Positions 28,321 through 50,054 are shown, counted from the stretch's first letter. The stretch is 51,163 nt of DNA from Thermoleophilia bacterium (GCA_025923055.1 JAICGP010000001.1:1-51163), one strand, 5' to 3'. The notes: generated by a model not told the origin, from the sequence alone. A program made the numbers and translations.

Positions 28321-28355
28321 CGGTGGCGCATCATACGCGGTTACACTCGACCCGG

Positions 28356-35427: not shown

Positions 35428-37275
35428 CTACGGCGGCGCGAGCGGGACGCTGCCGGCGATCGTCGTCCCGAGCCCCGGGCTGGAGCGCACCGCGAGCGTT
35501 CCGCCCAGGGCTCCGACGCGGTCGCGCATGTTCGTGAGCCCGCTGCCTCGGCCCGAGGCCCGTTGCGGGTCGAAGCCGTCCCCGTCGTCGCGGATCTCGA
35601 AGCTCAGGCGGCCGTCGCCGTCCCGAAGGCGAATCACGGCCCGCGCAGCGCCGCCGGCGTGCTTGCCCGCGTTCTGGAGCGCCTCCAGACAGCAGAAGTA
35701 GACGGCCGCCTCGGTCTCGTCCGGATAACGGCCGATCCCCTTCGCATCGAGCCTCGCCGGCGGTGAGGCGCGCCCGGCGACCGGGGCCAGGGCGTCCACG
35801 AGCCCGAAGTCGCGGAGGAGCGAGGGGTAGACGCCCTGCGCGAGGGCGCGAAGCTCGTCGACGACGTCCTCCAGCTCACGTCCGAGCTTCAGCATGCGCG
35901 CCTTGGCGAGCTCCGGATTCGTCTCGGCGAGCTCGCCCGCGAGCGCCGCCTGCACCCGCAGAGCGACCAGGTGCTGCTGCGCGCCGTCGTGGAGGTCTCG
36001 CTCGAGCCTGCGCCGCTCGGCGTCTCCGGCCGCGACGGTCCGCGCCCTGGAGCCGCGGAGCTCCTCCATCGTCTCTTCGAGATCGGCCTGGAGCCGACCG
36101 TTGTCGAGCGCGAGCAGCATGGTTTGCCCTGCAGCTCGAACGAGCTCCGGATCCTGGTCGAGGCCGTCGTCGTGGACGATGAACGCGACCTGCTCGCCGC
36201 CTCGCTCGACCGCAGTCACCGAACGCCCGGCCCGAACGGCTGCGAGGTCGACGGGGTCGCCGCTCGAGTCGACGAGACGCCCGGATCCGCCGATCCGGAA
36301 CGCGAGCTCGAGCGATGGGTCGTCGAGCGCGTCGGCCACCAGGGCCCGGAGGCGAGCCGCATCGGGGTCGTCACCGAGGTGGGCGACCATGCGCTTCAGC
36401 GCGACGCCGGCGAAGAAGGCTGTCTGCACGATCGCGAGCAGGAATCCGTACGAGAGGGTCCCGCGAGCCACCGTGAGAAACCAGCCGAGCACGTCGACGG
36501 AGCCGGCGTCGAGCTCGATGAGCCCGACGTTGGCCGCCCGGAAGGTGCCGAACACGATCGTCAGGACGAGAGCCGGGACGTAGACGGGAAGGAGCGCGCG
36601 CCTCCGCGGCCGGGTGGCGGTCGCGAGGCGGTACACGAGCGCAGCGCCGATCGCCACCGACAGCGTTACCGCGAGGTATTCCTCCAGCGTGCCCGTGCCT
36701 GCTGCGAGACTCGGCCGGTCGGCGATCATGAGCGCGTTCTCGGGACATCCCGCATTGCAGGTTGCAAGCGGCGCCCCTCCGGAGACGACCGGTGAGAAGA
36801 GGAACCAGGGAAGGAACGAGGCCAGCAGGAAGACGAGGATGGCGGCGACGAGAAGCCTTTCGATCGGACGCGTGAGCCGGCCCTGCGGAAAGGCGAAGAC
36901 GAGGTAGTAGGCGAGGGCGAAGACGACCGCGTCGAAGAGGACGCCGATGCTGTGGACGAGGGGATCGGCCGCTCCCTGGAGGGAGACCCCCGCAAAGGCG
37001 GCGGCAAGCGCCAGCAGGAGCATGCCGATGCGGTTTCCGGGGCGCCGTACCAGCCAGTAGAGCGCGACGGCGACCGTGCCCAGGATCACGTTGCCGATCT
37101 GGAGGCCGTACGCGAGGGGGCGCTCCAGGTGGTCGCTCGTCGCGACCAGAATCGTGCCGCCCACTCCGACCGTCAGACCCACGGCGCCGACGGCGAAGAG
37201 GGTCCGCCGGCTGGCGACGGCCGCCCCTCTCTTCTCGGCGGGAGCGGCCGCAGTCGGGGCGACGGCTGTGGACAC
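35428..37275 (-). CDS. sensor histidine kinase, HisKA_3/NarX-like, multi-TM sensor domain
   Basis: About 8 N-terminal TM helices. H-box ERRRLERDLHDGAQQHLVAL, N-box CLEALQNAGKHA, G-boxes DDGDGF and GSGLTNMRDRV. Confidence 0.9.
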   Translation of the reverse strand: MSTAVAPTAAAPAEKRGAAVASRRTLFAVGAVGLTVGVGGTILVATSDHLERPLAYGLQIGNVILGTVAVALYWLVRRPGNRIGMLLLALAAAFAGVSLQGAADPLVHSIGVLFDAVVFALAYYLVFAFPQGRLTRPIERLLVAAILVFLLASFLPWFLFSPVVSGGAPLATCNAGCPENALMIADRPSLAAGTGTLEEYLAVTLSVAIGAALVYRLATATRPRRRALLPVYVPALVLTIVFGTFRAANVGLIELDAGSVDVLGWFLTVARGTLSYGFLLAIVQTAFFAGVALKRMVAHLGDDPDAARLRALVADALDDPSLELAFRIGGSGRLVDSSGDPVDLAAVRAGRSVTAVERGGEQVAFIVHDDGLDQDPELVRAAGQTMLLALDNGRLQADLEETMEELRGSRARTVAAGDAERRRLERDLHDGAQQHLVALRVQAALAGELAETNPELAKARMLKLGRELEDVVDELRALAQGVYPSLLRDFGLVDALAPVAGRASPPARLDAKGIGRYPDETEAAVYFCCLEALQNAGKHAGGAARAVIRLRDGDGRLSFEIRDDGDGFDPQRASGRGSGLTNMRDRVGALGGTLAVRSSPGLGTTIAGSVPLAPP

Positions 37276-37345
37276 CTAGCCCGGTATTCAAGCGGAGCCA
37301 CCCTTCGCGTGTCCAGACGCCGCTCCCGGCTTGGGGTGGCCGGGC

Positions 37346-37374
37346 TCACCCGGGTGATTCGCAGATCCGGGTGA
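37346..37374 (+). promoter_or_regulatory. three-box element TCACCCGGGTGA-N11-GGGTGA (copy C)
   Basis: Lies in the divergent gap between the kinase (start 37275) and the arylsulfatase (start 37444). The extra box faces the sulfatase. Confidence 0.5.
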
Positions 37375-37443
37375 TGGCCCGTTGGACGCGGCGATGGAAG
37401 TATCGACGCGGTCGCAGCGACCCGAACAGGAGGCGGTCCGCGC

Positions 37444-39825
37444 ATGCCCGAGTCCCCGAACGCGAACGCGCGCGCGCGCAAGATTTTGCCCATGCCGGAT
37501 CCGGTGTACGAGGGGGAGCTCCCCTTCGACGCCAGGGACCCGTCGGCGACGTTCCCGCCGATTGCGCCCCTGCGCCCGCCAGCGGGCGCCCCGAACGTCC
37601 TCGTCGTCCTCCTCGACGACGTCGGCTTCGGCGCCTCGAGCGCGTTCGGGGGCCCTTGCCGTACACCGACGGCGGAGCGGCTCGCCGCAAACGGCCTGAG
37701 GCTGAGCCGCTTCCACACGACCGCGCTCTGCGCGCCGACGCGGCAGGCGCTCCTGACCGGACGGAACCACCACACAGTGGGCATGGGCGGGATTACCGAG
37801 ATCGCGACGAGCGCGCCGGGCTACAACTCCGTGCGGCCGAACTCGTGCGCTCCAGTCGCCGAGATCCTCAAGCTCAACGGCTACTCGACCGCCCAGTTCG
37901 GGAAGTGCCACGAGGTGCCCGTCTGGCAGACGAGTCCCATGGGTCCGTTCGACGCGTGGCCGACCGGCAGCGGCTTCGAGCACTTCTTCGGGTTCATCGG
38001 CGGCGAGGCGCACCAGTACTACCCGGCGATCTACGACGGCACAACGCCGGTCGAGCCCGAGAAGACGCCTGAGGAGGGCTACCACCTCACGGAGGACATG
38101 ACCGACCGGGCCATCTCGTGGGTGCGCCAGCAGAAGGCGTTGATGCCGGACAAGCCATTCTTCGTCTACTTCGCGCCGGGAGCGGCGCACGCGCCGCACC
38201 ACGTGCCGAAGGAGTGGGCCGACAAGTATCGAGGCGCGTTCGACCAGGGCTGGGACGCGGTGCGTGAGGAGACGTTCGCCCGGCAGAAGGAGCTGGGTGT
38301 CATCCCACCTGAGGCCGAGCTCACCGAGCGCCACGACGAGATCCCAGCCTGGGACGACATGCCAGAGGAGCTGAAGCCGGTCCTCGCCCGGCAGATGGAG
38401 ATCTACGCCGGCTTCCTCGAGCACACAGACTTCCACTTCGGGCGGCTCGTCGACGCGCTCGAGGACCTCGGCGTCCTCGAGGACACGCTCGTCTACTACA
38501 TCATCGGGGACAACGGCGCCTCGGCCGAGGGCACGTTGCACGGCACGTTCAACGAGATGATCAACTTCAACGGCGCCGCCGCGCTCGAGACGCCGGATTT
38601 CATGCTCGAGCGGCTCGACGACTTCGGCGGGCCCGACGCCTACAACCACTACGCCGTCGGCTGGGCGCACGCGATGGATACGCCCTACCAGTGGACGAAG
38701 CAGGTCGCCTCCCACTGGGGCGGCACGCGCAACGGCACGATCGTCCACTGGCCCAACGGCTTCCCCGCCAAGGGTGAGATCCGTTCCCAGTTCCACCACG
38801 TGATCGACGTTGCTCCGACGATCCTCGAGGTGGCGGGCGTCCCGGAGCCGAGCACGGTGCACGGGGTCGAGCAGCGGCCGATGGAGGGGGTGAGCATGCT
38901 CTACGCGCTCCGCGACGGCGCCGCCGCCGAGCGCCACGAGACGCAGTACTTCGAGATGTTCGCGAACCGCGCCATCTACCACCAGGGCTGGACCGCGTGC
39001 ACGAAGCACAAGACGCCCTGGATCCTCATCGGCGGGGAGATGCCGGCCTTCGAGGACGACCGCTGGGAGCTCTACGACGTGTCCTCGGACTGGAGCCAGG
39101 CCCGCGACCTGGCGGACGAGCACCCGGAGAAGCTCGAGAAGCTCAAGGATCTCTGGCTCGACGAGGCGAGGAGGTACAACGTGCTACCCCTCGACGACCG
39201 CTCCGGCGAGCGGGTGAACCCGGACCTCGCCGGCCGGCCGACGCTCATCCGCGGCAGCTCGCAGCTCCTCTTCGGCGGTATGGGAAGGCTCTCGGAGCAC
39301 TCCGTCCTCAACATCAAGAACAAGTCGCACTCGGTCACCGCCGAGATCGAGGTCCCCGACGAGGGTGCGAGGGGCGTGATCATCGCGCAGGGCGGCAGCA
39401 TCGGCGGCTGGTCGCTCTACGCGAGGGACAGCGTGCCCACGTACTGCTACAACCTCCTCGGCATCCAGCACTTCTTCGTCCGTGGTGGGGACGCGCTTCC
39501 TGCGGGGCGGCACCAGGTGCGGATGGAGTTCGCCTACGACGGCGGCGGGCTCGGCAAGGGGGGCACGGTCCGGCTCTACGTCGACGGCGAGCAGGTCGGC
39601 GAGGGCCGCGTGGACGCGACGGCGGCGATGATCTTCTCCGCCGACGACACGTGCGACGTCGGCCGGGAGGGCGGAGCGCTCGTGTCGCCGGAGTACGGGC
39701 CGCACGACAATGCGTTCACGGGCCGGATCGACTGGGTGCAGATCGACATCGACGCGGCCGCGGAAGACGCCGACCACCTCATCGCGCCGGAGGAGCGCCT
39801 CGCGGTCGCGATGGCGAGGCAGTAG
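37444..39825 (+). CDS. Cys-type arylsulfatase (formylglycine-dependent)
   Basis: 793 aa. Contains NVLVVLLDDVGFG and the sulfatase signature CAPTRQALLTGRNHH. GGAGG lies 10 nt upstream of the ATG. Confidence 0.92.
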   Translation: MPESPNANARARKILPMPDPVYEGELPFDARDPSATFPPIAPLRPPAGAPNVLVVLLDDVGFGASSAFGGPCRTPTAERLAANGLRLSRFHTTALCAPTRQALLTGRNHHTVGMGGITEIATSAPGYNSVRPNSCAPVAEILKLNGYSTAQFGKCHEVPVWQTSPMGPFDAWPTGSGFEHFFGFIGGEAHQYYPAIYDGTTPVEPEKTPEEGYHLTEDMTDRAISWVRQQKALMPDKPFFVYFAPGAAHAPHHVPKEWADKYRGAFDQGWDAVREETFARQKELGVIPPEAELTERHDEIPAWDDMPEELKPVLARQMEIYAGFLEHTDFHFGRLVDALEDLGVLEDTLVYYIIGDNGASAEGTLHGTFNEMINFNGAAALETPDFMLERLDDFGGPDAYNHYAVGWAHAMDTPYQWTKQVASHWGGTRNGTIVHWPNGFPAKGEIRSQFHHVIDVAPTILEVAGVPEPSTVHGVEQRPMEGVSMLYALRDGAAAERHETQYFEMFANRAIYHQGWTACTKHKTPWILIGGEMPAFEDDRWELYDVSSDWSQARDLADEHPEKLEKLKDLWLDEARRYNVLPLDDRSGERVNPDLAGRPTLIRGSSQLLFGGMGRLSEHSVLNIKNKSHSVTAEIEVPDEGARGVIIAQGGSIGGWSLYARDSVPTYCYNLLGIQHFFVRGGDALPAGRHQVRMEFAYDGGGLGKGGTVRLYVDGEQVGEGRVDATAAMIFSADDTCDVGREGGALVSPEYGPHDNAFTGRIDWVQIDIDAAAEDADHLIAPEERLAVAMARQ

Positions 39826-39833
39826 GCCTCTCT

Positions 39834-39866
39834 TCACCTGGGTGAACGTCCGGGCCGGGCGGTGTT
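39834..39866 (+). promoter_or_regulatory. degenerate copy of the three-box element (TCACCTGGGTGA-N11-GGGCGG) (copy E)
   Basis: One mismatch in the palindrome and a weak third box. It sits 50-80 nt upstream of the gene starting at 39918, and a TGCGATACT extended -10-like box follows at about 39880. Confidence 0.35.
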
Positions 39867-39917
39867 CGGCGCCGCCGGAGCCTGCGATACTCGCGACGAA
39901 CCGCGAAAGGAGACGTG

Positions 39918-40436
39918 ATGGCAATTGGACCCGTCCAGCTGCTCGTGCTCGGGTTCCAGCAGCCCGACTTCAGGGGCGAGATCCTCGCCGAGCTCGACCG
40001 GCTGAAGGAGAACGACGTCGTCCGCGTGATCGACGCGCTCGCCGTCTACAAGGACGCGAAGGGCGAGGTGACCGTGCTCGAGCGCAGCGATCTGAGCGAC
40101 GAGGAGGCGGCGGAGTTCGGCGCCGTCGTCGGCGCGCTGATCGGAGCCGGGATGGCGGGGGCCGAGGGCGCCGAGGCGGGAGCCGAGCTCGGCGCGGAGG
40201 CGACGGCCGAGGGCGTCGACATCTTCGACGAGGAGGAGGCCTGGGACGTCGTCGCCGAGATCCCGGAGGACACGGCCGCGGCGCTGATCCTGCTCGAGCA
40301 CCGGTGGGCGATTCCGCTCCGGGATGCCATCGTCCGCGCCGGCGGCTTCCGGATCAGCGACGGCTTCATCCACCCCCTCGACCTCGTCGCGATCGGCGTG
40401 CTCGCCGCCGACGAGGCGGCGGCGACCAGCTCGTAG
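39918..40436 (+). CDS. conserved hypothetical protein (actinobacterial family usually found next to SHOCT genes; DUF6325/DUF1269-like)
   Basis: GPVQLLVLGFQQPDFRGEILAELDRLKENDVVRVIDALAVYKDAKGEV, then a Gly/Ala zipper, then LILLEHRWA. AGGAG lies 5 nt upstream of ATG 39918. The family name is from memory only. Confidence 0.72.
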   Translation: MAIGPVQLLVLGFQQPDFRGEILAELDRLKENDVVRVIDALAVYKDAKGEVTVLERSDLSDEEAAEFGAVVGALIGAGMAGAEGAEAGAELGAEATAEGVDIFDEEEAWDVVAEIPEDTAAALILLEHRWAIPLRDAIVRAGGFRISDGFIHPLDLVAIGVLAADEAAATSS

Positions 40437-40463
40437 ACGCACGATCGAGAAAGGAGAACGACG

Positions 40464-40703
40464 ATGTTCGGACCGTCCCGTAGGGTCGCCCGCCGCACGG
40501 CGCGGCGCACGTCCCGCCGGCAGGCGTATCTCCAAGACGCGATGAGCGGCGGCTACGAGGAGCCGGCGCCTCCGCCGGCGCAGGCCGCCCCGGTGGAGCC
40601 GGACTACGCCGCCGAGCTCCAGAAGCTCGCCAGCCTGCGCGACCAGGGCATCATCGACGACGCGGAGTTCGACGCGAAGAAGAAGCAGATCCTCGGCATC
40701 TGA
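40464..40703 (+). CDS. SHOCT-domain protein
   Basis: 79 aa. The C-terminal LQKLASLRDQGIIDDAEFDAKKKQILG is a canonical SHOCT motif. There is a strong SD (AAAGGAGAA). Confidence 0.8.
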   Translation: MFGPSRRVARRTARRTSRRQAYLQDAMSGGYEEPAPPPAQAAPVEPDYAAELQKLASLRDQGIIDDAEFDAKKKQILGI

Positions 40704-40705
40704 GC

Positions 40706-41686
40706 GTGGTGCCGCGGGAGGACGCGACGACCGCGGGAAGCTGCTGCGCGCCCGCGCCCGGCCGGGACACGACGGCTCCGCCGCCTCGGATGCCGGTCGC
40801 GACGTGGAACCGACGCGACGGCATGGTCCCGGTCGCCGGCGGCCCGTTCCTCCTCGGCAGCGAGGATCGCCTTGCCTATCCCGAGGACGGTGAGGCGCCG
40901 GTTCGCGAGGTCGAGGTCGGCCCCTTCTCCATCGACGCCTGCGCCGTCTCGAACGCCGACTTCGCCGGCTTCGTCGAGGCGACGGGCTACGTGACGGACG
41001 CCGAGCGCTTCGGGTGGTCGTTCGTCTTCGCAGGGTTCCTGCCGGACGACTTCCCACCGACGCGGGCCGTCGCCCAGGCGCCCTGGTGGCGCCAGGTCGA
41101 GGGTGCCGACTGGCGCCACCCCGACGGCCCCCAGTCCGATCTGGACGGGCGGCTGGACCATCCGGTCGTCCACGTCTCCTGGAACGACACGCAGGCATAT
41201 TGCGCCTCGCGCCGCGTGCGTCTTCCCACCGAGGCGGAGTGGGAGCTCGCCGCGCGAGGAGGGCTCCAGGGAAAGGCCTTTCCGTGGGGCGACGAGCGCG
41301 AGCCGGGCGGCGAGCATCGCATGAACGTCTGGCAGGGGCCCTTCCCGCACGAGAACACACGGGCGGACGGCCACGTCGGCACGTGTCCGGTCGACACGTT
41401 CCCGCCGAACGGCTTGGGGCTCTTCGAGACGACCGGCAACGTCTGGGAGTGGACGGCCGACTGGTTCCATGCGACGTTCCGCCAGCGGGACAGGCGGCGC
41501 GACCCGCACGGCCCCCCGCACGGGAAGCGCAAGGTGCAGAAGGGCGGCTCGTACCTCTGCCACCACTCCTACTGCCGCCGCTACCGCGTCGCGGCGAGGC
41601 AGGGGAACGAGCCTGACAGCTCGACCGGAAACGTCGGCTTCCGCTGTGCGCGGAGCGAGCGTGACGAGGACGGGCCAACCGCGTGA
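40706..41686 (+). CDS. formylglycine-generating enzyme (SUMF1/FGE family)
   Basis: Contains HPVVHVSWNDTQAYC, LPTEAEWELAARGG, GNVWEWTADW, and GGSYLCHHSYCRRYRVAARQGNEPDSSTGNVGFRC with the catalytic Cys pair. Confidence 0.92.
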   Translation: MVPREDATTAGSCCAPAPGRDTTAPPPRMPVATWNRRDGMVPVAGGPFLLGSEDRLAYPEDGEAPVREVEVGPFSIDACAVSNADFAGFVEATGYVTDAERFGWSFVFAGFLPDDFPPTRAVAQAPWWRQVEGADWRHPDGPQSDLDGRLDHPVVHVSWNDTQAYCASRRVRLPTEAEWELAARGGLQGKAFPWGDEREPGGEHRMNVWQGPFPHENTRADGHVGTCPVDTFPPNGLGLFETTGNVWEWTADWFHATFRQRDRRRDPHGPPHGKRKVQKGGSYLCHHSYCRRYRVAARQGNEPDSSTGNVGFRCARSERDEDGPTA

Positions 41687-42129
41687 TCTGGGCGATCCTG
41701 CTCGCGATCGGCATCCCGCTCTGGTTCTGCGCCGTGGGGATCCTCCTCGTCGCCCTCCGCAACCGCGGGCTGCGGCGACGGCCCGGGAACGTCCCCGTGC
41801 GAGTCCGGCGGCCCGGCAAGGATCGCTGGGTGCCCGGGCACGGCGTCTGGGTGCACGACGTGTTCGCCTTCCGGGGCAGCCCCGCAGCGTGGAAGGAGGG
41901 GCTCCTCTGGGTCACGGACGCGGCGGTGCGGCCGGCCGGCGCCGCCGAGCGAGACCGTCTGTATCGGATCGGAGACGCGCCGGTCGTCGCGACGTGTGAG
42001 CTCGCCTGCGGCGGCTCGATCGAGCTCGCAGCGCGGGCCGAGGATGCAGACGCGCTGCTCGGGCCCTTCGCCGCGGACGCCGAACCGCCGGCTTCCGAGC
42101 AGCCGCTTTCGACGAGCGGCCCGGTCTAG
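41683..42129 (+). CDS. N-terminally anchored hypothetical protein (DUF2550-like)
   Basis: GTGA overlap with FGE. One TM helix followed by a basic stretch and W...G.GVW..DVFAFR..., resembling the actinobacterial DUF2550 pattern. The family is assigned from memory. Confidence 0.6.
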   Translation: MIWAILLAIGIPLWFCAVGILLVALRNRGLRRRPGNVPVRVRRPGKDRWVPGHGVWVHDVFAFRGSPAAWKEGLLWVTDAAVRPAGAAERDRLYRIGDAPVVATCELACGGSIELAARAEDADALLGPFAADAEPPASEQPLSTSGPV

Positions 42130-42138
42130 GCCCCGCGG

Positions 42139-42870
42139 ATGGGCGAAGCCTTCCTCTGGGGGCTCGTGGCCGGCTCGTCCCTCGTCATCGGCGGGTGGGT
42201 CGCGCTCAGGGTGCGGATCGGCGGTCGAGTGCTCGGTCTCATCATGGCCTTCGGGGCAGGAGTGCTGATCAGCGCGGTCGCCTACGAGCTCGTCGCGGAG
42301 GCGTTCCAGGTCGGCGCCGGGAGCGGCGGGGTCGCGCTCGGCCTGGCGGCGGGCGCGGTCACCTTCCACTGCGGCGACCTGCTGATCGGCCGTCTCGGCG
42401 GCCGGAGCAGGAAGAGCTCCGAAGGCGAGCAGGCCTCCGGAGCGGCGCTCGGCATCGTCCTCGGAATCGTGCTCGACGGCGTGCCGGAGGCAATGGTGGT
42501 CGGGCTCAGCCTGCTCGAGGGCGGCTCCGTGAGCGTCGCCGTGATCGCCGCGGTCTTCCTCGCCAACCTCCCGGAGGCGATGGCGGCCACCAGCGGTCTC
42601 GCCGCCAGCGCGTGGTCTCGCGGGCGAATCCTGGGGCTGTGGGCGGGGGTCATGCTCGTCACCGGCCTCGCCGCCTTGCTCGGGTTCGCCCTGCTGGACG
42701 GAGCCTCAGTACGCACGCTGTCGTTCGTCCTGGCGTTCGCCGGCGGGGCGATCCTCACGATGCTCGCCGACACGATGATGCCCGAGGCCTTCGAGCACGG
42801 CGGCAAGCAGATCGGCCTGGCGACGACGCTCGGATTCGGCCTCGCGTTTGCGATCACCGCAGTCGCGTGA
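42139..42870 (+). CDS. ZIP-family divalent metal transporter (GufA/ZupT-like)
   Basis: 243 aa, about 8 TM. Repeated DGVPEAMVVG and ANLPEAMAAT motifs. Confidence 0.85.
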   Translation: MGEAFLWGLVAGSSLVIGGWVALRVRIGGRVLGLIMAFGAGVLISAVAYELVAEAFQVGAGSGGVALGLAAGAVTFHCGDLLIGRLGGRSRKSSEGEQASGAALGIVLGIVLDGVPEAMVVGLSLLEGGSVSVAVIAAVFLANLPEAMAATSGLAASAWSRGRILGLWAGVMLVTGLAALLGFALLDGASVRTLSFVLAFAGGAILTMLADTMMPEAFEHGGKQIGLATTLGFGLAFAITAVA

Positions 42871-42896
42871 CCGTCCAGGCGCGCTCTTCGGTCCGC

Positions 42897-44231
42897 CTAG
42901 CCCGAGAGAACGAGCGTCTTCTCGGCCTCGTACTCGTCGTCGGTGAGCGCGCCACGCTCCCTGAGGGCGGCGAGGCGCTCTAGGCGCTCGAGCTTGGCCG
43001 CCGGCTGAGCCTCCGCCGGAGGCGCGCTACCGTCGGCCGTGCGCGCTCGTCGGAACGAGCCCGGCGACCAGGCTCCTTCGCCTCGGACGGCGTGCGGGAA
43101 CTCCGCCACCGTCCGCCGGCGGAAGAGCTCCAGACCGACGAAGGCGAGGCCCGTGACCACCAGGACGGAGACGAAGCGCCGCGGCGTCCCGGTCGGCCCC
43201 CAGAGGAGGACGAGAAGCAGAACGGTGGCGAGGACGACATGGGGCAGGGCGGGCCGCTCGCGGAATGTCGGCGCGAGCCGGCGCCGGACCGCCGTCCCAG
43301 GCGCCGTGGGCCCCGCGGCCCACGTGCCCAGGAGGGCGAGCGCGCCGACGAGGATGCCCGCCGCAGCCGATTCGGCGAGCAGGGAGGTGAACACCGCCCA
43401 CACGTCGGCCGCGGCCGCCTTGAGGGACTCCGCCTCGACGAGGCCGTCGACCACCAGGTTGCCGCCGAGGCGACGGATGACGAGCAGCACGATTCCGAGG
43501 AGGATCAGGCTCACGGCGATCATGCGAACCGCCTCGCGCCGCCGCCCTCCCGCCAGGTACGCCGCGCCGGCCCACAGGGCCAGCCCGAGGATGAACGGCC
43601 AGAAGGAGAGTGCCTTCAGCGCCTCGACGGCTGTCTGGACGGTCGAGAGCTGGTCGGAGCGCATGATCACGATCGGCTCCACGCGCTCCTGCACGGTCTC
43701 GGTCGCCCCCTCGCCGACGCCGATGCGGCCGGCCACGTTCTCGACGATCTGGTCGACGTCCAGGACGACCGCATCCCCGGTCAGCTGCACGCGCTCGGTC
43801 TCGCCCTCGATGACCGCCAGGAGCTGCGCGTTCACGGCCCGGTTGGTCGCCCGCCAGAGCTCCTGGACGCGCGGCCTCGTCAGCGCCTGGCTGGCTCGCT
43901 CGTAGGCCACGCCCCGAAGCTGTGACGAGGCCGGCCCGGCGAGGGGCTTGAGCCGTTCGGGAAGCGCTTCCTCGAGCCGTTCCTCCACGTCGGCCGACGC
44001 GTACGCCTGATCGACGATGTGGACCGCCAGCGCGTCGCGAACGTTCTCGCTCTCGAGCAGCTGGCCGCTGTGATCGGCCCAGCTGTCGGGGTCGAGCGCG
44101 ACGTCGCGGATCCAGACGCTGATCGTCGAGACCAGCAGGCAGACGGCGCCGAGGACGACGAGGACCGGAACGAGGATGCGATGGTCGCCGCTGCCCTTCT
44201 CGCCCTCCGCCCGGGTCGTGTTCGCGCTCAC
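42897..44231 (-). CDS. polytopic membrane protein with C-terminal SHOCT domain
   Basis: C-terminus LERLAALRERGALTDDEYEAEKTLVL (SHOCT). The track start GTG 44273 lies inside the upstream GGGTGA box, so GTG 44231 is preferred, though uncertain. Confidence 0.75.
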   Translation of the reverse strand: MSANTTRAEGEKGSGDHRILVPVLVVLGAVCLLVSTISVWIRDVALDPDSWADHSGQLLESENVRDALAVHIVDQAYASADVEERLEEALPERLKPLAGPASSQLRGVAYERASQALTRPRVQELWRATNRAVNAQLLAVIEGETERVQLTGDAVVLDVDQIVENVAGRIGVGEGATETVQERVEPIVIMRSDQLSTVQTAVEALKALSFWPFILGLALWAGAAYLAGGRRREAVRMIAVSLILLGIVLLVIRRLGGNLVVDGLVEAESLKAAAADVWAVFTSLLAESAAAGILVGALALLGTWAAGPTAPGTAVRRRLAPTFRERPALPHVVLATVLLLVLLWGPTGTPRRFVSVLVVTGLAFVGLELFRRRTVAEFPHAVRGEGAWSPGSFRRARTADGSAPPAEAQPAAKLERLERLAALRERGALTDDEYEAEKTLVLSG

Positions 44232-44265
44232 GCGTGGACCTTGCCGCCGGCGGGACAGAGCGGCG

Positions 44266-44294
44266 TCACCCACGATTGTGGTTCACCCGGGTGA
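44266..44294 (-). promoter_or_regulatory. three-box element TCACCCGGGTGA-N11-GGGTGA (copy D, minus orientation)
   Basis: Lies between the LAL regulator stop (44311) and the SHOCT membrane gene. The extra box faces the SHOCT gene. Confidence 0.5.
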
Positions 44295-44310
44295 TCTCCT
44301 GCCGCCCTGC

Positions 44311-46566
44311 TCAGATGGCACCGAGCTCCCGGGCCCGCTGAACCGCGGCCTGGCGCGACGACACCCGGAGCTTCTGGTAGATCGACTTCGTGTGCGAGTG
44401 GATCGTGTTGAAGGACAGGAAGAGGATCTCCCCGATCTCGCGCTTGGCGAGGCCGTCCGCCAGGTAGCGAAGCACTTCCAGCTCGCGCTCCGTGAGCTCG
44501 CTGTCGCCGTCGATCCTCCGGTGAGCCGGAACCATCGTGCGCGTCACCTCCTCCAGCCGCTCGCGCAGCTCGCCGGGATCCGTACAGCCTTGGACCAGCG
44601 CCCGCGCCTCGGCGAGGAGCGCCCGCGCCTCTTCGCGGGCGCCGAGCGCTCGGCGGACGGGCGCGAGCGCGAGAAGCGCGTCGGCAACGAAGAGCTCCTC
44701 GCCGCGCGCGCGTAGCCTCGCAAGCCCCCGCTGGAGGAGCACGGACGCCTCGTGGAGCTCCCCCTCGGACGCGCGGACGACGCCGAGAGCCGTGTAGGCG
44801 AACCCGGAGCTGGGCTCGTCCGCGAGGCCGTGGGCCTCGACGAGCTCCACGGCGACGGCGGCAGCGGCACGGGCGCCGCTCATGTCCCCGACGGACAGCA
44901 GCGCGCGTGCGAGCAGCGCCCTGGAGGCGGAGGCCACGAGCCATTGCTGCCGCCGGCCGGCGAGGCGGGCCGCTTGCCGAAGCGGCGTCAGTGCGTCGGT
45001 CGTCGTGCCGCCCCAGACGAGCGCCGACCCGAGCGCGAAGAGCACCGTCGGCTGCCAGGCCGAGCGCCGCTCGCCTTCGAGCTCGGACGCGCGCGCGGCC
45101 GCCGAGGCCATCGTCCGCGCGTCGCCGTAGGGGAAGCACGCCCGTGCGAGCGCGCCGAGCGCCTCGAGCGAAGTCCCGTCCGCGAACGTCTCCGCGCTCT
45201 CAGCTGCCTCGGCGTCCGCCAGCGCCTCGAGCGCCTCCTCGCGGCGGTCGAGCCTGGACAGCGCCCAGGCCCTCGCGAGCGCGAGCCGGGCGTCGTGCTC
45301 GACGCGGGCGGCCGGCAGCAGGTCGAGCCAACGAAGGATCGGCTCCGCGCGCTCGACCAGGACGGCCGTGACCCACCGCTCGGCCACGAGGTCGGCAGCG
45401 GCGTCGAGGTCCCCGGCGGCGATCGCATGGCGAACGGCCTCGAAGACGCGACCCTCGTCGCCGAGCCACCGGGACGCGCGCCGGTGCAGCTCTCGCCTGT
45501 GCTCCTCGTCGCGCCTCGCGAGCTGGGTGCGCAGCGTCTCGGCGAACAGCTGGTGGTAGCGATACCACTCGCGCCGGTCGTCGAGCGGGAGGAGGAAAAG
45601 GTTGGCCCGCTCGATGGCGAGGAGGACGGCTGCGGAGTTCTCCCGACCGGTGACGGCGTCGCAGAGCGCCCCGTTCATGGACTCGAGGATGGAGGTCTCG
45701 AGCAGGAACTCCCGGACGTCGGGCTCGAGCGTATCGAGCACGACCTCCGCCAAGTAGTCGACGACGTGCCGGCTCGAGCCGCCGAAGCGCGCGACGAAGG
45801 CGGTCGGATCGCGGACCGTGCGCAGGGAGAGCGACGCGAGCTGGACTCCCACCGGCCAGCCCTCGGTCCGCTCATGGAGCACGGTCACGCTCTCGGACGA
45901 GAGCCCGAGCTGTAGCGTCTCGTTGAGGAACGCGGCCGCCTCGTCGCGCGTGAGGCAGAGGTCGAGGGCGCGGACCTCGAGCAGCTCGCCCGTGGCTCGC
46001 AACCGCCCGATCGGGATTGGTGGATCCGAGCGTGAGGAGAGCGCGACGGTGACGTTCCTCGGACGGCGCTCCAGGAGGAAGGCGACCGAGTCGTGGCACT
46101 CGCGGCTCTCGATCACCTGGTAGTCGTCGAGGACGAGGACGATCTCGTCGCCCAGCGACTCGAGCTCGCTCAGGATCGCCGGGAGGACCGTCTCGGCAAC
46201 GTCGGCGCGGCAGGCGGGCAGCGCGGCCAGGGCGGACGCGCCGAAGCTCGGCTGGAACCTGCGAATCGCCTCCACGACGTAGCTCCAGAAGACGGCCGGG
46301 TCGTTGTCGGCGCCGTCGAGGGAGACGCATGCAAACGGGCGGCCGTCGGCCTCCCGCCATTGCGCGAGCACGGTCGTCTTCCCGAAGCCCGGGGGTGCCG
46401 CCAGCAAGACGAGCGTCGGGCGCGCTTCCGCGAGGACGCCGGTCAGCCGGGGGCGGGGGAGCACCTCGCTCGAGCAGCGGACGCCCTCGAGCTTCGCCTC
46501 GAAGATGGCCGAGGGGTTCGGCCTCCGACCAACGATCGTCTCGTCCGCGACCTGCGCGCTTGACAA
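44311..46566 (-). CDS. LAL/MalT-like large ATP-binding LuxR-family transcriptional regulator
   Basis: Walker A LLAAPPGFGKTT, long helical/TPR-like middle region, C-terminal LuxR HTH (LTERELEVLRYLADGLAKREIGEILFLSFNTIHSHTKSIYQKLRV). TTG 46566 is preferred because GGAGG lies 8 nt upstream and GC3 rises there; the track start is GTG 46644. Confidence 0.88.
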   Translation of the reverse strand: MSSAQVADETIVGRRPNPSAIFEAKLEGVRCSSEVLPRPRLTGVLAEARPTLVLLAAPPGFGKTTVLAQWREADGRPFACVSLDGADNDPAVFWSYVVEAIRRFQPSFGASALAALPACRADVAETVLPAILSELESLGDEIVLVLDDYQVIESRECHDSVAFLLERRPRNVTVALSSRSDPPIPIGRLRATGELLEVRALDLCLTRDEAAAFLNETLQLGLSSESVTVLHERTEGWPVGVQLASLSLRTVRDPTAFVARFGGSSRHVVDYLAEVVLDTLEPDVREFLLETSILESMNGALCDAVTGRENSAAVLLAIERANLFLLPLDDRREWYRYHQLFAETLRTQLARRDEEHRRELHRRASRWLGDEGRVFEAVRHAIAAGDLDAAADLVAERWVTAVLVERAEPILRWLDLLPAARVEHDARLALARAWALSRLDRREEALEALADAEAAESAETFADGTSLEALGALARACFPYGDARTMASAAARASELEGERRSAWQPTVLFALGSALVWGGTTTDALTPLRQAARLAGRRQQWLVASASRALLARALLSVGDMSGARAAAAVAVELVEAHGLADEPSSGFAYTALGVVRASEGELHEASVLLQRGLARLRARGEELFVADALLALAPVRRALGAREEARALLAEARALVQGCTDPGELRERLEEVTRTMVPAHRRIDGDSELTERELEVLRYLADGLAKREIGEILFLSFNTIHSHTKSIYQKLRVSSRQAAVQRARELGAI

Positions 46567-46717
46567 CGGCTCTCCCTCCGCTCGACGTCTTCGCCGCCGC
46601 CAAATCTCGCTCGCGGACGTGCTGCGGGGCAATGAAGCTCGCACCGAACATGCCGTGGTGCGCGCATCCCAACCCGCAGGGGTGCGATACCGCGGGATTC
46701 CGGCGCCGGCGGCTGCT

Positions 46718-47455
46718 CTAGGAGGTTCCGGAGGGCCCCGGCTCGGGGGTAGCCACGGGCGCCTCCGCGAGGAAGAGGAGCGTCGCCATCACGCGCTTGC
46801 TGACGTTCTCCGCCTCGGAGAGGCCGAGCTTGAGGAAGATCGAGTTGATGTGCTTCTCGACGGCGCGCTTCGTGAGGACGAGCGACTCGGCGATCGCGGC
46901 ATTGCTCTTGCCCTGGGCGATCTCGGCGAGCACCTCCTGCTCACGCTGCGTCAGCTCCGCGAGCGGCGACTGCTCGCGGCGCGCGCTCGCCGCCACGAGC
47001 ACCTCGACGATCCGGGGGTCGATCACCGACCCGCCGCTCGCCACCGACTCGATGGCGGAGACGAGCTGGGCCCGGTCGTGGACGCGCTCCTTCAGGAGGT
47101 ACCCGCGCCGGTCGGAGCCGGCCTCGAGCAGGGCCAGCGCATAGCGAGGCTCCGCGTACTGGCTGAGGACGACCACGCCGACCTCCGGATGGAGGCGCCG
47201 CAGCTCGACCGCCAGCCGAATGCCTTCGTCGGTTCCGGAAGGCGGCATGCGGATGTCCGTGAGGACGACGTCGGGCTGCGTCGTCTCGACCGCCTCGAGG
47301 AGGGAGGGGAGATCTCCGCACGACGCGACGACTTCGACGTCGGGCTCGGAGGAGAGGATCTGCTGAAGACCTTCGAGGACGAGGAGGCTGTCGTCCGCGA
47401 GCGCGACGCGAATCGGCACGAGGTCACGATAGTCACAGGGCAGGCGGGCGGGCAT
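46718..47455 (-). CDS. NarL/FixJ-family response regulator (REC plus LuxR HTH)
   Basis: IRVALADD, VVLTDIRMP phospho-acceptor, and C-terminal LTQREQEVLAEIAQGKSNAAIAESLVLTKRAVEKHINSIFLKLG. The start is ATG 47455 or GTG 47419. Confidence 0.9.
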   Translation of the reverse strand: MPARLPCDYRDLVPIRVALADDSLLVLEGLQQILSSEPDVEVVASCGDLPSLLEAVETTQPDVVLTDIRMPPSGTDEGIRLAVELRRLHPEVGVVVLSQYAEPRYALALLEAGSDRRGYLLKERVHDRAQLVSAIESVASGGSVIDPRIVEVLVAASARREQSPLAELTQREQEVLAEIAQGKSNAAIAESLVLTKRAVEKHINSIFLKLGLSEAENVSKRVMATLLFLAEAPVATPEPGPSGTS

Positions 47456-47550
47456 GCGCGCACGTCCGGAGAGAGACGTGTCGGCCACCGTGCGCGAGAC
47501 CGGCGAGCCCCATTGCGCGGGGCTCGCCGCCGGACGAAGGTTTCGGCGAG

Positions 47551-47964
47551 ATGTCGGAGGAGCAACGGGGCCCGGTCGGCGTTCTCGTCGTGGACGATCA
47601 GGCGCACTTCAGGCGAGTCGCCCTCGAGGTGATCGAGGCGACGCCCGGGTTCGAGCTCGTCGGCGCCGCCGCTTCGGGCGACGAGGCGCTCGCGCTCGTC
47701 GCCAGGACGAGCCCCGATCTCGTCCTCATGGACGTTCGCATGCCGGGCATGGACGGGCTCGAGACGACGCGGCGCCTCCGTGCTGCGCACGCGCCGGCCG
47801 TGATCGTCCTCGTGTCGATCGACCGACGAGCGGAGCTTCCCCGGGAGATCGACTCCTGCGGGGCCAGGACGCTGCTGCGAAAGCAGGATTTCGGGCCGCT
47901 CGCGCTGCGCCGTTTGTGGGAAGCTCACGGGACGCCCGGCGCGTCCCCGGCGCCCAGGCCGTAG
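47551..47964 (+). CDS. receiver-only response regulator (CheY-like, no output domain)
   Basis: VLVVDDQ, LVLMDVRMPGMDG, LLRKQDF. 137 aa. Divergent from the NarL-type regulator. Confidence 0.8.
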   Translation: MSEEQRGPVGVLVVDDQAHFRRVALEVIEATPGFELVGAAASGDEALALVARTSPDLVLMDVRMPGMDGLETTRRLRAAHAPAVIVLVSIDRRAELPREIDSCGARTLLRKQDFGPLALRRLWEAHGTPGASPAPRP

Positions 47965-47997
47965 GCCTCTCCCGCATCGCAGCGAGCCGCACGCCGT

Positions 47998-48025
47998 TCA
48001 CCCGGGTGAACGAGCGGGCGGGTGA
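47998..48025 (+). promoter_or_regulatory. three-box element TCACCCGGGTGA-N10-GGGTGA (copy A; 16-bp perfect palindrome GTTCACCCGGGTGAAC at 47996-48011)
   Basis: About 95 nt upstream of ATG 48122, in the gap after the receiver-only regulator. Confidence 0.5.
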
Positions 48026-48121
48026 GGACTCGTGCCGCCCGCGGGCCGAGACTCGGCACCGCGGGACGCCCGCGGTCGGCTTCGGCCGCAGGCGCCCGCC
48101 CAACGAAAGGAGAAGGCGGAG

Positions 48122-48499
48122 ATGCTCTTGGCGGAATCGTTCCTGGACGTCTTCTGGTGGATGGTCGTCGCGTTCTTCTGGGTGATGTACTTCTGGGTGT
48201 TCATCTCGCTCTTCGGCGACATCCTCCGTCGCGACGACCATTCGGGCTGGGCGAAGGCGGGCTGGATCGTCCTCCTGTTCGTCCTGCCGTTCCTCGGGGC
48301 GTTGATCTACATCATCGCCCGTCCCAAGGTCACGCCGCAGGACGTCCGTGCCGCGACGCAGATCGAGGCAGCGCAGCGCGCCGTCGCAGGCGTCTCGACT
48401 GCGGACGAGCTCTCGAAGCTCGCTGAGCTTCGCAGCCAGGGCGTGCTGAACGACCAGGAGTACGAGGACCTGAAGCGCAGGGCCCTGGCCGGGGCATGA
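48122..48499 (+). CDS. PLDc_N-type small membrane domain fused to a SHOCT domain
   Basis: ATG 48122 with SD AAAGGAGAAGG. N-terminal two-TM unit ...GWAKAGWIVLLFVLPFLGALIYIIARP, and C-terminal LSKLAELRSQGVLNDQEYEDLKRRAL. Confidence 0.8.
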   Translation: MLLAESFLDVFWWMVVAFFWVMYFWVFISLFGDILRRDDHSGWAKAGWIVLLFVLPFLGALIYIIARPKVTPQDVRAATQIEAAQRAVAGVSTADELSKLAELRSQGVLNDQEYEDLKRRALAGA

Positions 48500-48574
48500 G
48501 CATTGCCGGCCAAAGCAGCGCGCGCCCGGCACATGGGCGCTCGGGCGCGCGGCCCGCGGAGGAGCGAGTGCGAG

Positions 48575-48604
48575 TCACCCGGGTGAAACCGGGGCGGCGG
48601 GTGA
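48575..48604 (+). promoter_or_regulatory. three-box element TCACCCGGGTGA-N12-GGGTGA (copy B)
   Basis: Lies in the 170-290-nt gap upstream of the next membrane-protein genes. The third-box decamer GCGGGTGAGG is identical to copy A. Confidence 0.5.
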
Positions 48605-48670
48605 GGTCAGCCTGCCTCTCGGCTGCAACGCTCGCGCTCGTGCACACGCCCTCGAGACACTGGAGGCTCG

Positions 48671-48850
48671 GTGCCTGAGGCGGTCGAGCCGTCCGTCCTC
48701 GCTCTGCTCGCGCTGGGAAGCGGTCTCGGGCTCGTCCTGGCGGGGGTCGCCCTGCGGACGAACCTCCTCGAGGAGCGCGCCCGCCCGGCCCGATGCGCCG
48801 CGTGCGGGCGACTTCGCCCAGCGAACCGGGGATGTCGGTGTCCGGGCTAG
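48671..48850 (+). CDS. possible 59-aa TM mini-protein with C-terminal CxxC...CxC
   Basis: GTG 48671 lies 4 nt after GGAGG. It has one TM helix (PSVLALLALGSGLGLVLAGVAL) and the tail CAACGRLRPANRGCRCPG. GC3 is good for about 40 codons. It is below the track length cutoff and overlaps the next ORF's N-terminal extension. Confidence 0.3.
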   Translation: MPEAVEPSVLALLALGSGLGLVLAGVALRTNLLEERARPARCAACGRLRPANRGCRCPG

Positions 48851-49281
48851 AGGCGGGCGAGCGCTCCACGCGGGACGCCTCCGTCGACCGGTCTGGTCGC
48901 GTCCGTTTCGCCGGAATCCTCGTGATCCTCATCGGAGCGTTCAACGTCATCCAGGGGATCGCCGCAGCCGCACAGGAGACGTACTTCGCGGTGACGCCCG
49001 ACGGGCTCCTCGTCTGGGACTACGACGGCTGGGCGGGAATCTGGTTCGTGCTCGGCGGCCTGCAGCTGCTCGCCGGCCTCGGCATCCTCGCCGGAAAGCG
49101 GTGGGCGAGAGTCGCCGGAGTCATCCTCCTCATGCTCGTCGCAACGGGCCAGATCGCATTCCTGGCGGCGTTTCCGCTCTGGGCGGTGCTCACGATCGCG
49201 ATCGCGGTCGTGGCCATCAACGCGCTCGTCGTTCACGGTGAGAGCTTCGGCCCGACCGCCGAACGGGGCTCGCGGTCGTGA
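48793..49281 (+). CDS. four-TM membrane protein (DUF7144-like), paralog 1
   Basis: Core FAGILVILIGAFNVIQGIAA...WAGIWFVLGGLQLLAGLGILAGKRWARVAGVILL... aligns with the 49542 gene. The start is ATG 48793 or ATG 48832. Confidence 0.75.
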   Translation: MRRVRATSPSEPGMSVSGLEAGERSTRDASVDRSGRVRFAGILVILIGAFNVIQGIAAAAQETYFAVTPDGLLVWDYDGWAGIWFVLGGLQLLAGLGILAGKRWARVAGVILLMLVATGQIAFLAAFPLWAVLTIAIAVVAINALVVHGESFGPTAERGSRS

Positions 49282-49499
49282 GGACGGCCACCTCTCTCTT
49301 CGCCGACGTCGCGGTCTTCGAGGGCCTTCTCTTCCCGCTCGTGAACCTCGCCGTCCTCGCGACCTGGGGCTACGTGCTCGTGGACCTCTTCCGCAACCCG
49401 AGGCTGTCCGGCGGGGCGAAGGCGATGTGGCTGCTCGCGATCGTGCTCCTGCCGATCGCCGGGGCGGTCATCTACCTCGCGGTGCGCGAGGACTGGTAG
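49278..49499 (+). CDS. PLDc_N-type small two-TM protein
   Basis: 73 aa. VLVDLFRNPRLSGGAKAMWLLAIVLLPIAGAVIYLAVRE parallels the N-terminus of the 48122 gene. GTGA overlap with the upstream gene. Confidence 0.7.
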   Translation: MRTATSLFADVAVFEGLLFPLVNLAVLATWGYVLVDLFRNPRLSGGAKAMWLLAIVLLPIAGAVIYLAVREDW

Positions 49500-49541
49500 C
49501 CCGAGGGACGTCCACTGTCCGGTTCGGAGAAAGGAGCCAAG

Positions 49542-49964
49542 ATGAGTGAGTACGAGACCACACGAGCGCGGGAGCCCCTCAGCGGCTGGGCGGTCGGCGG
49601 CATCGCGTTCGCCGGCGTCATGCTCGTCGTGCTGGGGCTCTTCCAGACGATCTCCGGGCTCGCGGCGATCTTCGAGGACGACTTCTTCGTCGTGGCCGCG
49701 AACTACACCTTCGAGCTCGACGTGACCGCCTGGGGATGGATCCACCTCGTCCTCGGGATCGTGATGATCCTCGCCGGCTTCTCGCTCTTCGGGGGGAGCA
49801 CGTGGGCCCGCGTCGTCGGCATCGCGCTGGCGGTGCTCGCCGCGATCGCGAACTTCTTCTTCATCCCGTACTACCCGTTCTGGTCGCTCCTCATCATCGC
49901 GCTCGCGGTGTGGGTGATCTGGTCGCTGACGCGTCCGCTCGACCCCGTGCGCCGAGGAGCCTGA
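49542..49964 (+). CDS. four-TM membrane protein (DUF7144-like), paralog 2
   Basis: SD AAAGGAG. Contains SGWAVGGIAFAGVMLVVLGLFQTISGLAAIFEDDFFVV...WGWIHLVLGIVMILAGFSLFGGSTWARVVGIALAVL... Confidence 0.8.
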   Translation: MSEYETTRAREPLSGWAVGGIAFAGVMLVVLGLFQTISGLAAIFEDDFFVVAANYTFELDVTAWGWIHLVLGIVMILAGFSLFGGSTWARVVGIALAVLAAIANFFFIPYYPFWSLLIIALAVWVIWSLTRPLDPVRRGA

Positions 49965-50054
49965 GAACGAGGACGGATTGAGGTGGACAGGGAGAGACCC
50001 CTCGGTTAAGGATGCCGCCTCGAGGGGGGACTCGCCCAGAAGGAGGGACAGGTC

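Follow-up and report, generated by a model that had tools for sequence, protein, structure and literature searches.

What reads a DNA element of three short boxes that stands in front of five transcription units of one gene cluster, and what does its reader do there? The question arises from a stretch of 51,163 nucleotides of a Thermoleophilia bacterium (GCA_025923055.1 JAICGP010000001.1:1-51163), called the window throughout, in which five copies of a palindrome followed by a further GGGTGA half-site had been marked. The original prediction left two readings: (a) an operator for regulators encoded within the cluster, a MalT-like LAL protein and a NarL-type response regulator, or (b) a promoter for an alternative sigma factor. 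From the comparative analysis presented here, it is proposed, with a probability of roughly three in four, that the five elements are LAL-dependent (MalT-type) activator promoters without a -35 element.

Five sites of one architecture

The palindrome TCACCCGGGTGA occurs exactly at 37346, 44283, 47998, and 48575 in the whole window (G+C, 72%), which matches contigs from metagenomes, and a fifth copy at 39834, TCACCTGGGTGA, differs from it by one mismatch. By chance, 0.09 copies would be expected, and none of 100 shuffles reached five. Each palindrome is followed by a third box, which is degenerate in the 39834 copy:

37346..37374, + strand: site 1, palindrome 37346-37357, spacer N11, box 3 GGGTGA at 37369-37374; 5' of the arylsulfatase gene
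39834..39862, + strand: site 2 (degenerate), palindrome TCACCTGGGTGA, spacer N11, box 3 GGGCGG at 39857-39862; 5' of the DUF6325-SHOCT-FGE-DUF2550-like-ZIP operon
44266..44294, - strand: site 3, palindrome 44294-44283, spacer N11, box 3 GGGTGA at 44271-44266; 5' of the SHOCT membrane-protein gene
47996..48025, + strand: site 4, 16-bp perfect palindrome GTTCACCCGGGTGAAC at 47996-48011 around the 47998 copy, spacer N10 counted from the 12-mer, box 3 GGGTGA at 48020-48025; 5' of the PLDc_N-SHOCT gene
48575..48604, + strand: site 5, palindrome, spacer N12, box 3 GGGTGA at 48599-48604; 5' of the DUF7144 / PLDc_N / DUF7144 genes

Each of the five sites is intergenic, site 2 beginning 9 nt past the sulfatase stop codon and site 3 beginning 17 nt past the LAL stop codon, and the third box faces the downstream gene start in 5/5. 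The predicted set of intergenic three-box sites, including the extended palindrome of site 4, was therefore confirmed. The claim that no full copy lies inside a coding region also stood: a relaxed scan of the 51 kb, in which as many as four of the 18 specified bases could differ, gave nothing but the five sites and chance-level matches within genes. The flanked form tTCACCCGGGTGAAc, described before as usual, held in part, being complete in just one or two copies; an A directly after the palindrome is found in 4/5 copies and a T directly before it in 2/5. Otherwise the spacers and flanks are unrelated between copies, and the boxes alone are conserved. An AGATCC-like degenerate inverted partner seen just 5' of box 3 in site 1 is not kept across the sites.

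The same geometry in other genomes

The pattern TCACCCGGGTGA-N9-13-GGGTGA was searched in one genome per species for 185,579 species. The scan yielded at least 120 loci, and the matches listed, to which all counts of genome sites below refer, comprise 130 sites. Their spacers are strongly uneven, with 11, 22, 71, 19, and 7 sites for N9, N10, N11, N12, and N13, respectively (chi-square p=2e-21). Spacer length also separates intergenic from genic matches: 86 of the 93 N10/11 sites are intergenic, versus 10 of the 37 with other spacers (Fisher p=1.5e-13). That 27 of these 37 lie inside open reading frames (ORFs) is what would be expected of chance matches, and the 86 intergenic N10/11 sites are taken here as the genuine ones. 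They come chiefly from Mycobacterium and related genera and from uncultured Actinomycetota, among them metagenome-assembled genomes (MAGs) of Ilumatobacteraceae, Gaiellaceae, Egibacteraceae, Solirubrobacterales, and Propionibacteriaceae. Where enough flank is available, a co-directional gene start follows within 400 nt downstream in 54 of 71 sites. An internal negative control is given by chance matches with spacer 12 or 13 that lie inside conserved ORFs and recur as coding sequence, namely those at L018:559-589 (Polaromonas) and L090:322 (a relative) and those in L108 and L121.

An independent test of the third box is provided by 53 further palindromes (up to one mismatch) in the listed loci, which were chosen without any third-box requirement. 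A third box (up to one mismatch) follows them at N10, N11, and N12 in 11, 25, and 6 cases, whereas any other spacer from 0 to 29 gives 0-3. Since the third box is kept in palindromes not selected for it, the three-box grammar is real. The third-box consensus is GG(G/A)(T/C)GA, with the variants GGGCGA, GGATGA, and AGGTGA.

Other arrangements of the same half-sites were also seen. At L007:5431, L025:7282, L046:196, and L067:4722, one palindrome lies between divergent genes and has a third box and a -10-like hexamer on each side, and the same two-sided layout is found at L033:6251, L054:3401, L094:2485, L139:11099, L148:4462, L165:2850, and L173:1021. The presence of third boxes on both sides between divergent genes indicates that the palindrome is a symmetric anchor and that the third box sets direction; these sites look like bidirectional LAL promoters sharing one anchor. 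A third arrangement is found in a Solirubrobacterales MAG (L073:5757-5787), where two full palindromes stand 7 nt apart, TCACCCGGGTGA-ttgatgc-TCACCCGGGTGA, beside a DUF7144 gene.

A -10-like hexamer and two classes of site

When the 86 genuine genome sites are aligned on box 3, the downstream positions, which were unselected by the search, reveal a -10-like nAnnnT at positions 30-35 from the box 3 start (A31 in 67/86, T35 in 63/86). At the modal offset, about 75% of these sites have the ANNNT hexamer, which lies 23-24 nt 3' of box 3. The hexamer is also present in 33 of 37 three-box sites from metagenome loci (described below) and, at offset 29 or 30, in 5/5 sites of the window, where the background of 0.038 per site gives a joint probability of 7.6e-8. 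The predicted hexamers of the window are the following:

37398..37403, + strand: predicted -10 of site 1, AAGTAT, positions 30-35 from the box 3 start
39886..39891, + strand: predicted -10 of site 2, GATACT
44238..44243, - strand: predicted -10 of site 3, CAAGGT
48048..48053, + strand: predicted -10 of site 4, GAGACT
48627..48632, + strand: predicted -10 of site 5, AACGCT

If transcription starts about 7 nt after the hexamer, box 3 would lie at about -41 to -36 and the palindrome centre near -58. For site 1, the transcription start site (TSS) would fall near 37410, approximately 34 nt 5' of the ATG at 37444. The called GTG start of the SHOCT membrane-protein gene (44231) is 6 nt past CAAGGT, and a leaderless transcript of this gene is possible. 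No sigma-70 consensus promoter was found in 37200-49000, and the one terminator-like site there is at or below chance; the lack of consensus promoters fits activator-dependent promoters without a -35 element.

A fourth, inverted box, GGGTGA-TGACnnC-TCACCC, is present in 57 of the 86 genome sites, and another 28 are without it. This bimodal distribution points to two classes, three-box and four-box. The five window sites belong to the three-box class: they have no -35-like core, and the TCACCC positions of the 57 four-box sites are not conserved in them.

The regulator that accompanies the element

The LAL protein encoded at 44311-46566 matches the Pfam families AAA_22, TPR_MalT, WHD_MalT, and GerE. 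It has Walker A (GFGKTT) and Walker B-like (VLVLDDY) motifs, a MalT-like NOD, a TPR region, and a C-terminal LuxR/GerE helix-turn-helix (HTH). Its match to the E. coli MalT structure PDB 8bob has an E-value of 1.2e-53, and BLASTP aligns it to E. coli MalT with 30% identity over 569 aa (1e-54), the HTH being aligned separately. With the NCBIfam MalT model PRK04841 it scores 358.8 bits, below the equivalog cutoff of 537, so it is a MalT paralogue and not MalT itself. The recognition helices are NTIHSHTKSIYQKL in the window LAL, TTIKTHIRNLYQKL in MalT, and NTVKTHQRAVYRKL in site-adjacent mycobacterial LALs.

The association between this family and the element was examined in both directions. From motif to protein, every window protein was compared by tblastn with the motif-selected loci (8 kb each). 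A MalT-type NOD homologue was found in the locus of 31 of the 86 genuine sites. In many cases the LAL gene is the immediate neighbour of the site: it diverges from the site, or the site follows right after the LAL stop codon, as at 44294. When all 874 predicted proteins were clustered, a LAL family of approximately 756 aa ranked first (26 of the 78 motif-selected loci), and a second AAA_16+GerE group added 6 more of the 78; this clustering showed no other recurrent regulator family beside the motif. NarL homologues were found in one of the 78 loci (L054), the only locus that also holds a kinase fragment. In four loci (L003, L036, L038, L041; e.g., L003:6384-7776), the gene directly 3' of the element encodes a TPR + GerE protein of about 457 aa without the ATPase domain; such truncated LAL-like targets hint at regulatory cascades within the family.

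From protein to motif, 80 metagenome loci (651 kb) were picked solely by homology to the window LAL (35-73% identity). They contain 42 palindromes against about one expected at the chance rate of the window, an approximately 40-fold enrichment. Among them are 37 three-box sites, with N10, N11, and N12 in 3, 30, and 4 cases versus 0-2 at other spacers.

The presence of the element also follows the recognition helix. It is found with the window-type helix NTIHSHTKSIYQKL (about 12 of 23 loci) and with NTVK[ST]H-type helices. Motif-bearing LALs as a whole have NT[IV][HK][ST]H-type helices, and about 45 loci with an NTVR[ST][HQ] helix have no sites. The window NarL regulator, with the helix RAVEKHINSIFLKL, falls outside the NT[VI][KH][TS]H pattern of MalT and the motif-associated LALs. 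In one of the clades with an NTVR[ST][HQ] helix, that with NTVRTHTKNIYAKL, the LAL gene is directly followed by TCACCAC-N5-TCACCACATGTGGTGA-N7-TCACCAC-N10-TACCTT. Its TCACCAC / GTGGTGA boxes form an inverted repeat with a 7-nt gap, TACCTT occupies positions 30-35, and the geometry is unchanged. This sister clade consists of L180, L182, L183, L186, L198, and L200-L203 (e.g., L198:3435-3500), and its layout matches boxes 3 and 4 plus the -10 hexamer despite the other half-site. Co-variation of helix and box within a fixed geometry is what direct recognition by the LAL protein would predict.

Among the motif-free LAL clades, k-mer enrichment is dominated by coding and HIP1-like words, and only the TCACCAC of that one clade emerged. 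Seven loci (L177-L179, L181, L185, L190, L199) whose LAL has the helix STVRTHTKRIYSKL are rich in GCGATCGC and carry no element; this HIP1-like word suggests that they are of cyanobacterial origin. TCACCC-N6-GGGTGA pairs in L136, L140, and L132 were discarded, as they lie inside a conserved ORF.

Proposed mechanism and rival explanations

In the proposed layout of each element, two inverted GGGTGA half-sites abut (TCACCC|GGGTGA) around a centre near -58, a third, directly oriented one occupies about -41 to -36, just 5' of the position of a -35 hexamer, and a plain -10-like ANNNT follows 23-24 nt further on; no usable -35 is present. Upon its signal, the 751-aa MalT homologue would oligomerise via its ATP-binding NOD, and its LuxR-type HTH domains would then fill the three boxes. 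The protomer on box 3 would recruit RNA polymerase to a promoter unable to fire alone, and the five units (arylsulfatase; DUF6325-SHOCT-FGE-DUF2550-like-ZIP; SHOCT membrane protein; PLDc_N-SHOCT; DUF7144/PLDc_N) would be switched on together. The NarL regulator, the kinase, and the single receiver probably provide input to LAL expression or activity and would not be needed to explain the boxes.

Several observations weigh against this proposal. Only 20 of the 80 LAL-selected loci carry the motif, and a LAL gene is seen within the available 8 kb for only 36% of the motif-selected sites. A clade with the helix NTVKSHTRSIFRKL, similar to the motif type (e.g., L152, L171), has no sites within 18 kb, and none was found in the short flanks of L127, L130, L132, L136, and L140, which have exactly the window's helix. 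The -10 and TSS positions are deduced from conservation. The RR-LAL pair (RR, response regulator) is kept in the window's nearest relatives, and a protein of the NarL family, BldM, reads the same half-site (PMC4125116). Finally, outside the window clade most sites show a TGAC -35-like core and, between -35 and -10, the fourth inverted box, an arrangement that would fit repression or dual control equally there. It is conceivable, although improbable, that the boxes serve LAL, or some other protein of the GerE type, as an operator through which it represses or exerts dual control instead of simply activating: in the four-box class, boxes 3 and 4 bracket the TGAC core at about -41 to -23, and a bound protein could occlude RNA polymerase. 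The window's own sites, however, show the signature of activator-dependent promoters in lacking both the core and the fourth box, and MalT and its Actinoplanes homologue activate from the same position (PMC7567727). Box position, the absent -35, and this precedent together favour activation.

Of the proteins encoded in the cluster, the NarL regulator is the other candidate reader. Phosphorylated by the HisKA_3 kinase, it might bind the palindrome as a dimer, alone or with LAL on box 3, in the manner of BldM or BldM-WhiI. BldM, an orphan NarL/FixJ regulator of Streptomyces venezuelae, binds TCACcCgnncGgGTGA, and the BldM-WhiI heterodimer uses one GGGTGA half-site (PMC4125116). The RR-LAL pair, the neighbouring receiver, and often a kinase are kept in the closest relatives (L124, L125, L128, L138, L141), with the synteny of the single receiver near site 4 preserved in L124 and L125, and in L054 five or six sites lie beside the orthologous response regulator and kinase gene end. 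We nevertheless consider this explanation unlikely. Besides the rarity of NarL homologues in motif-selected loci and the deviating helix, sites occur without any response regulator within 7-8 kb (L137, L139, L144, L007, L025, L046, and the mycobacterial loci), and the BldM half-sites are 4 bp apart while the palindrome here has no gap. Of reading (a), the LAL/MalT half is supported by the association in both directions and by the helix tracking, and the NarL half is not supported as a general explanation; the NarL regulator may yet have a role in the clade of the window itself, which has kept the RR-LAL pair.

Reading (b) took TCACCC as the -35 and the third GGGTGA as the -10 of an alternative-sigma promoter. 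Their spacing of 16-18 nt is indeed promoter-like, and GGGTGA loosely recalls the SigB/SigF-type -10 GGGTA(T/C). However, the separate ANNNT hexamer conserved downstream places box 3 at about -38 and not at -10. The first two boxes form a perfect palindrome, which in relatives is shared by two divergent genes and has third boxes on both sides; many sites have a fourth, inverted box; and no sigma gene recurs beside the motif, save an occasional downstream target, an ECF sigma factor in L005 and L022. This reading was accordingly not upheld, and we regard it as very improbable. Even less credit can be given to a transcribed RNA element with alternative hairpins (box 1:3 versus 3:4) or a small mobile repeat. 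GGGTGA-N7-TCACCC could form a hairpin, and the copies are clustered, but an Rfam search of 36000-51163 (E<=1) gave only two sub-threshold matches to unrelated small RNAs, the box sequence itself is conserved rather than covarying, and the surroundings of the boxes differ from copy to copy. A hairpin is impossible in the window sites, as they have no box 4, and with the -10 hexamer 3' of all boxes, the boxes would not be transcribed. The comparative data thus bear out a regulon of five units sharing a protein-binding or promoter element, and LAL-dependent activation is the explanation carried forward here.

Genes of the cluster and targets in relatives

The gene map was checked by codon-position G+C and Pfam, and the earlier annotations proved essentially right:

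44311..46566, - strand: LAL regulator, MalT homologue, 751 aa, proposed reader of the boxes
46718..47455, - strand: NarL-type response regulator, directly 5' of the LAL gene on the same strand, 151-nt gap
35428..37275, - strand: HisKA_3 histidine kinase, divergent from site 1
47551..47964, + strand: single-domain receiver protein, just 5' of site 4, divergent from the response regulator gene
37444..39825, + strand: target unit 1, arylsulfatase (Sulfatase and a C-terminal lectin-like domain)
39915..42870, + strand: target unit 2, DUF6325, SHOCT (79 aa), FGE-sulfatase, DUF2550-like, ZIP transporter
42897..44231, - strand: target unit 3, 444-aa membrane protein with a C-terminal SHOCT domain
48122..48499, + strand: target unit 4, PLDc_N-SHOCT protein
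48793..49964, + strand: target unit 5, DUF7144, PLDc_N (73 aa), DUF7144

The response regulator and LAL genes form a probable operon, and the HisKA_3 kinase is the likely partner of the response regulator. The NarL regulator is viewed here as an associated component and not as the proposed box reader. On the kinase side of the site 1 palindrome there is no third box, and the cluster contains no mal genes. The kinase and NarL regulator genes are 9.4 kb apart in the window, with LAL and three target units between them, and are near neighbours in L054, L138, and L141; the LAL regulon appears to be nested inside, or fused to, a two-component locus. Upstream lies a second cluster (27718-33487), in which the element does not occur; its products include a second protein of the sulfatase family (29767-31857), an LPG_synthase_TM protein (28672-29694), and a further single receiver (28356-28757).

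In relatives, at 36-90% protein identity, sites precede PLDc_N-SHOCT, DUF7144, DUF6325(-SHOCT-...-ZIP), and SHOCT membrane-protein genes; the boxes and the -10 hexamer are retained among orthologous targets while spacers diverge and gene order is shuffled. Sites stand before PLDc_N-SHOCT genes in L014, L027, L048, L102, L124, L125, L137, L139, and L189, and before DUF7144 genes in L075, L124, L129, L141, L145, L148, L165, and L194. The order LAL stop, site, SHOCT membrane gene, as at site 3, recurs in L033, L124, L126, and L138, and the sulfatase orthologue in L027 also has a site in front. Even the degenerate third box of site 2, GGGCGG-TGTTCGG, has a counterpart, GGGCG(A/G)-TGTTCGG, kept in L007, L025, L046, L067, and L134, and the DUF6325 orthologue of L067 is preceded by TCACCCGGGTGA-N11-AGGTGA.

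In mycobacteria, the four-box form fronts other genes: those for SDR, a 91-aa protein without a Pfam family, pyridine-nucleotide disulfide oxidoreductases, DUF417, MsrB, zinc-type dehydrogenases, and DUF4440. In Egibacteraceae, an ECF sigma factor gene lies downstream of the element. The family of approximately 91 aa without a Pfam match (…YRICVRGHLSERL…GEIHDQSQLYGLLDRVRDLGLELISV…) is the commonest first gene 3' of the element, being found at L004:6657-6932 and in 12 other loci of mycobacteria, Ilumatobacteraceae, and uncultured Actinomycetes, sometimes fused to ABC-transporter genes or followed by them.

Significance of the element

LAL regulators are abundant in actinobacteria, and very few have a defined DNA site. 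The analysis offers a precise and testable promoter grammar: the palindrome is placed near -58 and a box near -38.5, an inverted box may follow near -25, and the -10 hexamer is a plain one. From this grammar, the direct targets of one large LAL clade are predicted in hundreds of genomes, those of environmental and opportunistic mycobacteria among them. SHOCT, PLDc_N, DUF7144, and DUF6325, domains of unknown function, are brought together in one co-regulated unit, and the natural co-variation of helix and box might help in reading LAL specificity or in engineering it. No new type of regulatory mechanism comes to light.

A broader interpretation can be put forward only tentatively and is doubtful as a whole. 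MalT-like STAND regulators might form an ancient clade, spread across Actinomycetota, whose DNA code is this element, the box co-varying with the helix. The window lineage would have wired this clade into a two-component system (the kinase, the NarL regulator co-transcribed with LAL, and an orphan receiver) controlling a conserved response made up of small membrane proteins (SHOCT, PLDc_N, DUF7144, DUF6325) and a sulfatase/FGE pair. If true, uncultured soil actinobacteria would possess a new regulon for envelope or membrane stress, and non-tuberculous mycobacteria a sister regulon of redox enzymes (SDR, pyridine-nucleotide disulfide reductase, MsrB, DUF417).

Comparison with known systems

The Bacillus subtilis ComA site reportedly consists of an inverted repeat and a downstream third half-site, to which a protein with a LuxR-type HTH binds (Griffith and Grossman 2008). 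This protein belongs to the response regulators, and the sequence and spacing of its half-sites are unlike those of the window element.

In the literature searched, the palindrome core CACCCGGGTG returned primers or unrelated sequences only, and BldM was the sole relevant case for GGGTGA/TCACCC half-sites together with LuxR. For IniR, a mycobacterial STAND regulator, no DNA site is given, and nothing pertinent beyond it was found on MalT-like or STAND regulators in mycobacteria. This literature, as far as it was searched, does not describe the box arrangement or its conservation throughout the phylum, mycobacteria included, nor does it describe the co-variation of helix and box or the regulon of membrane-protein and sulfatase genes.

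BldM shares with the proposed reader the identical half-site TCACCC / GGGTGA, the LuxR/GerE-type HTH, and the use of both palindromic and single half-sites. Unlike it, BldM is not a LAL protein, its half-sites are separated, and no third box at a fixed distance has been described for it.

The closest parallels are with MalT. The E. coli MalT box is GGGGA(T/G)GAGG with the core GGA(T/G)GA (PMC7567727). The boxes of window sites 4 and 5 read GCGGGTGAGG, which agrees with 8 of the 10 positions of this consensus and is close, not identical. GGATGA, one of the third-box variants in relatives, is the MalT box core, and GGATGAGG is the third box at orthologous positions in several mycobacteria. The same GGATGAGG is the proximal box of E. 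coli malPp, where it is followed by CAAACT at positions 29-34, a box-hexamer distance equal to that in the window, although the mapped malPp -10 may differ. The likeness to the MalT box that the original prediction had pointed out is borne out by the published consensus (PMC7567727) and by the malPp sequence. The MalT promoters of E. coli and Klebsiella resemble the window sites in having a homologous regulator with a similar helix, an asymmetric half-site, several boxes in mixed orientation, and no -35. They differ in the half-site, GG(G/A)TGA here versus the core GGA(T/G)GA, with the third base here mostly G and not A; in the upstream boxes, which are spaced in malPp and form an abutting perfect palindrome here; and in the regulon, which here is unrelated to maltodextrins.

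In actinobacteria, a cluster of 51 genes, mostly uncharacterised ones and genes for membrane proteins, is switched on by ACSP50_3915, the MalT-like protein of Actinoplanes sp. SE50/110. The motif through which it acts, TCATCC-N5-GGATGA, overlaps the -35 region, its 3' end being 34.4 +/- 1 nt away from mapped TSSs; relatives keep the motif, and their gene order is shuffled (PMC7567727). Both systems have an actinobacterial MalT-like LAL and clustered targets, and the motif-TSS distance is comparable with the 35-36 nt or so estimated here. The Actinoplanes motif, however, has GGATGA in place of GGGTGA and is an inverted repeat with a 5-nt gap instead of an abutting palindrome with a third box 11 nt off, and the gene content is different. 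The Actinoplanes case is based on transcriptomics and genetics, the present one on sequence.

The four-box class has its counterpart in the PTTMP promoter of Rhodococcus jostii TMP1, which is controlled by the LAL protein TpdR and has an upstream repeat, a repeat over the -35, and a short inverted partner between -35 and -10 (PMC6099782). The layout is the same, while the box, TnnAAnnGCGGAnTC, is unrelated and the spacings are different. The term undescribed, applied to the element at the outset, thus suits this particular arrangement of boxes, whereas the kind of system to which it would belong, in which MalT/LAL boxes abut the -35 region, is a known one.

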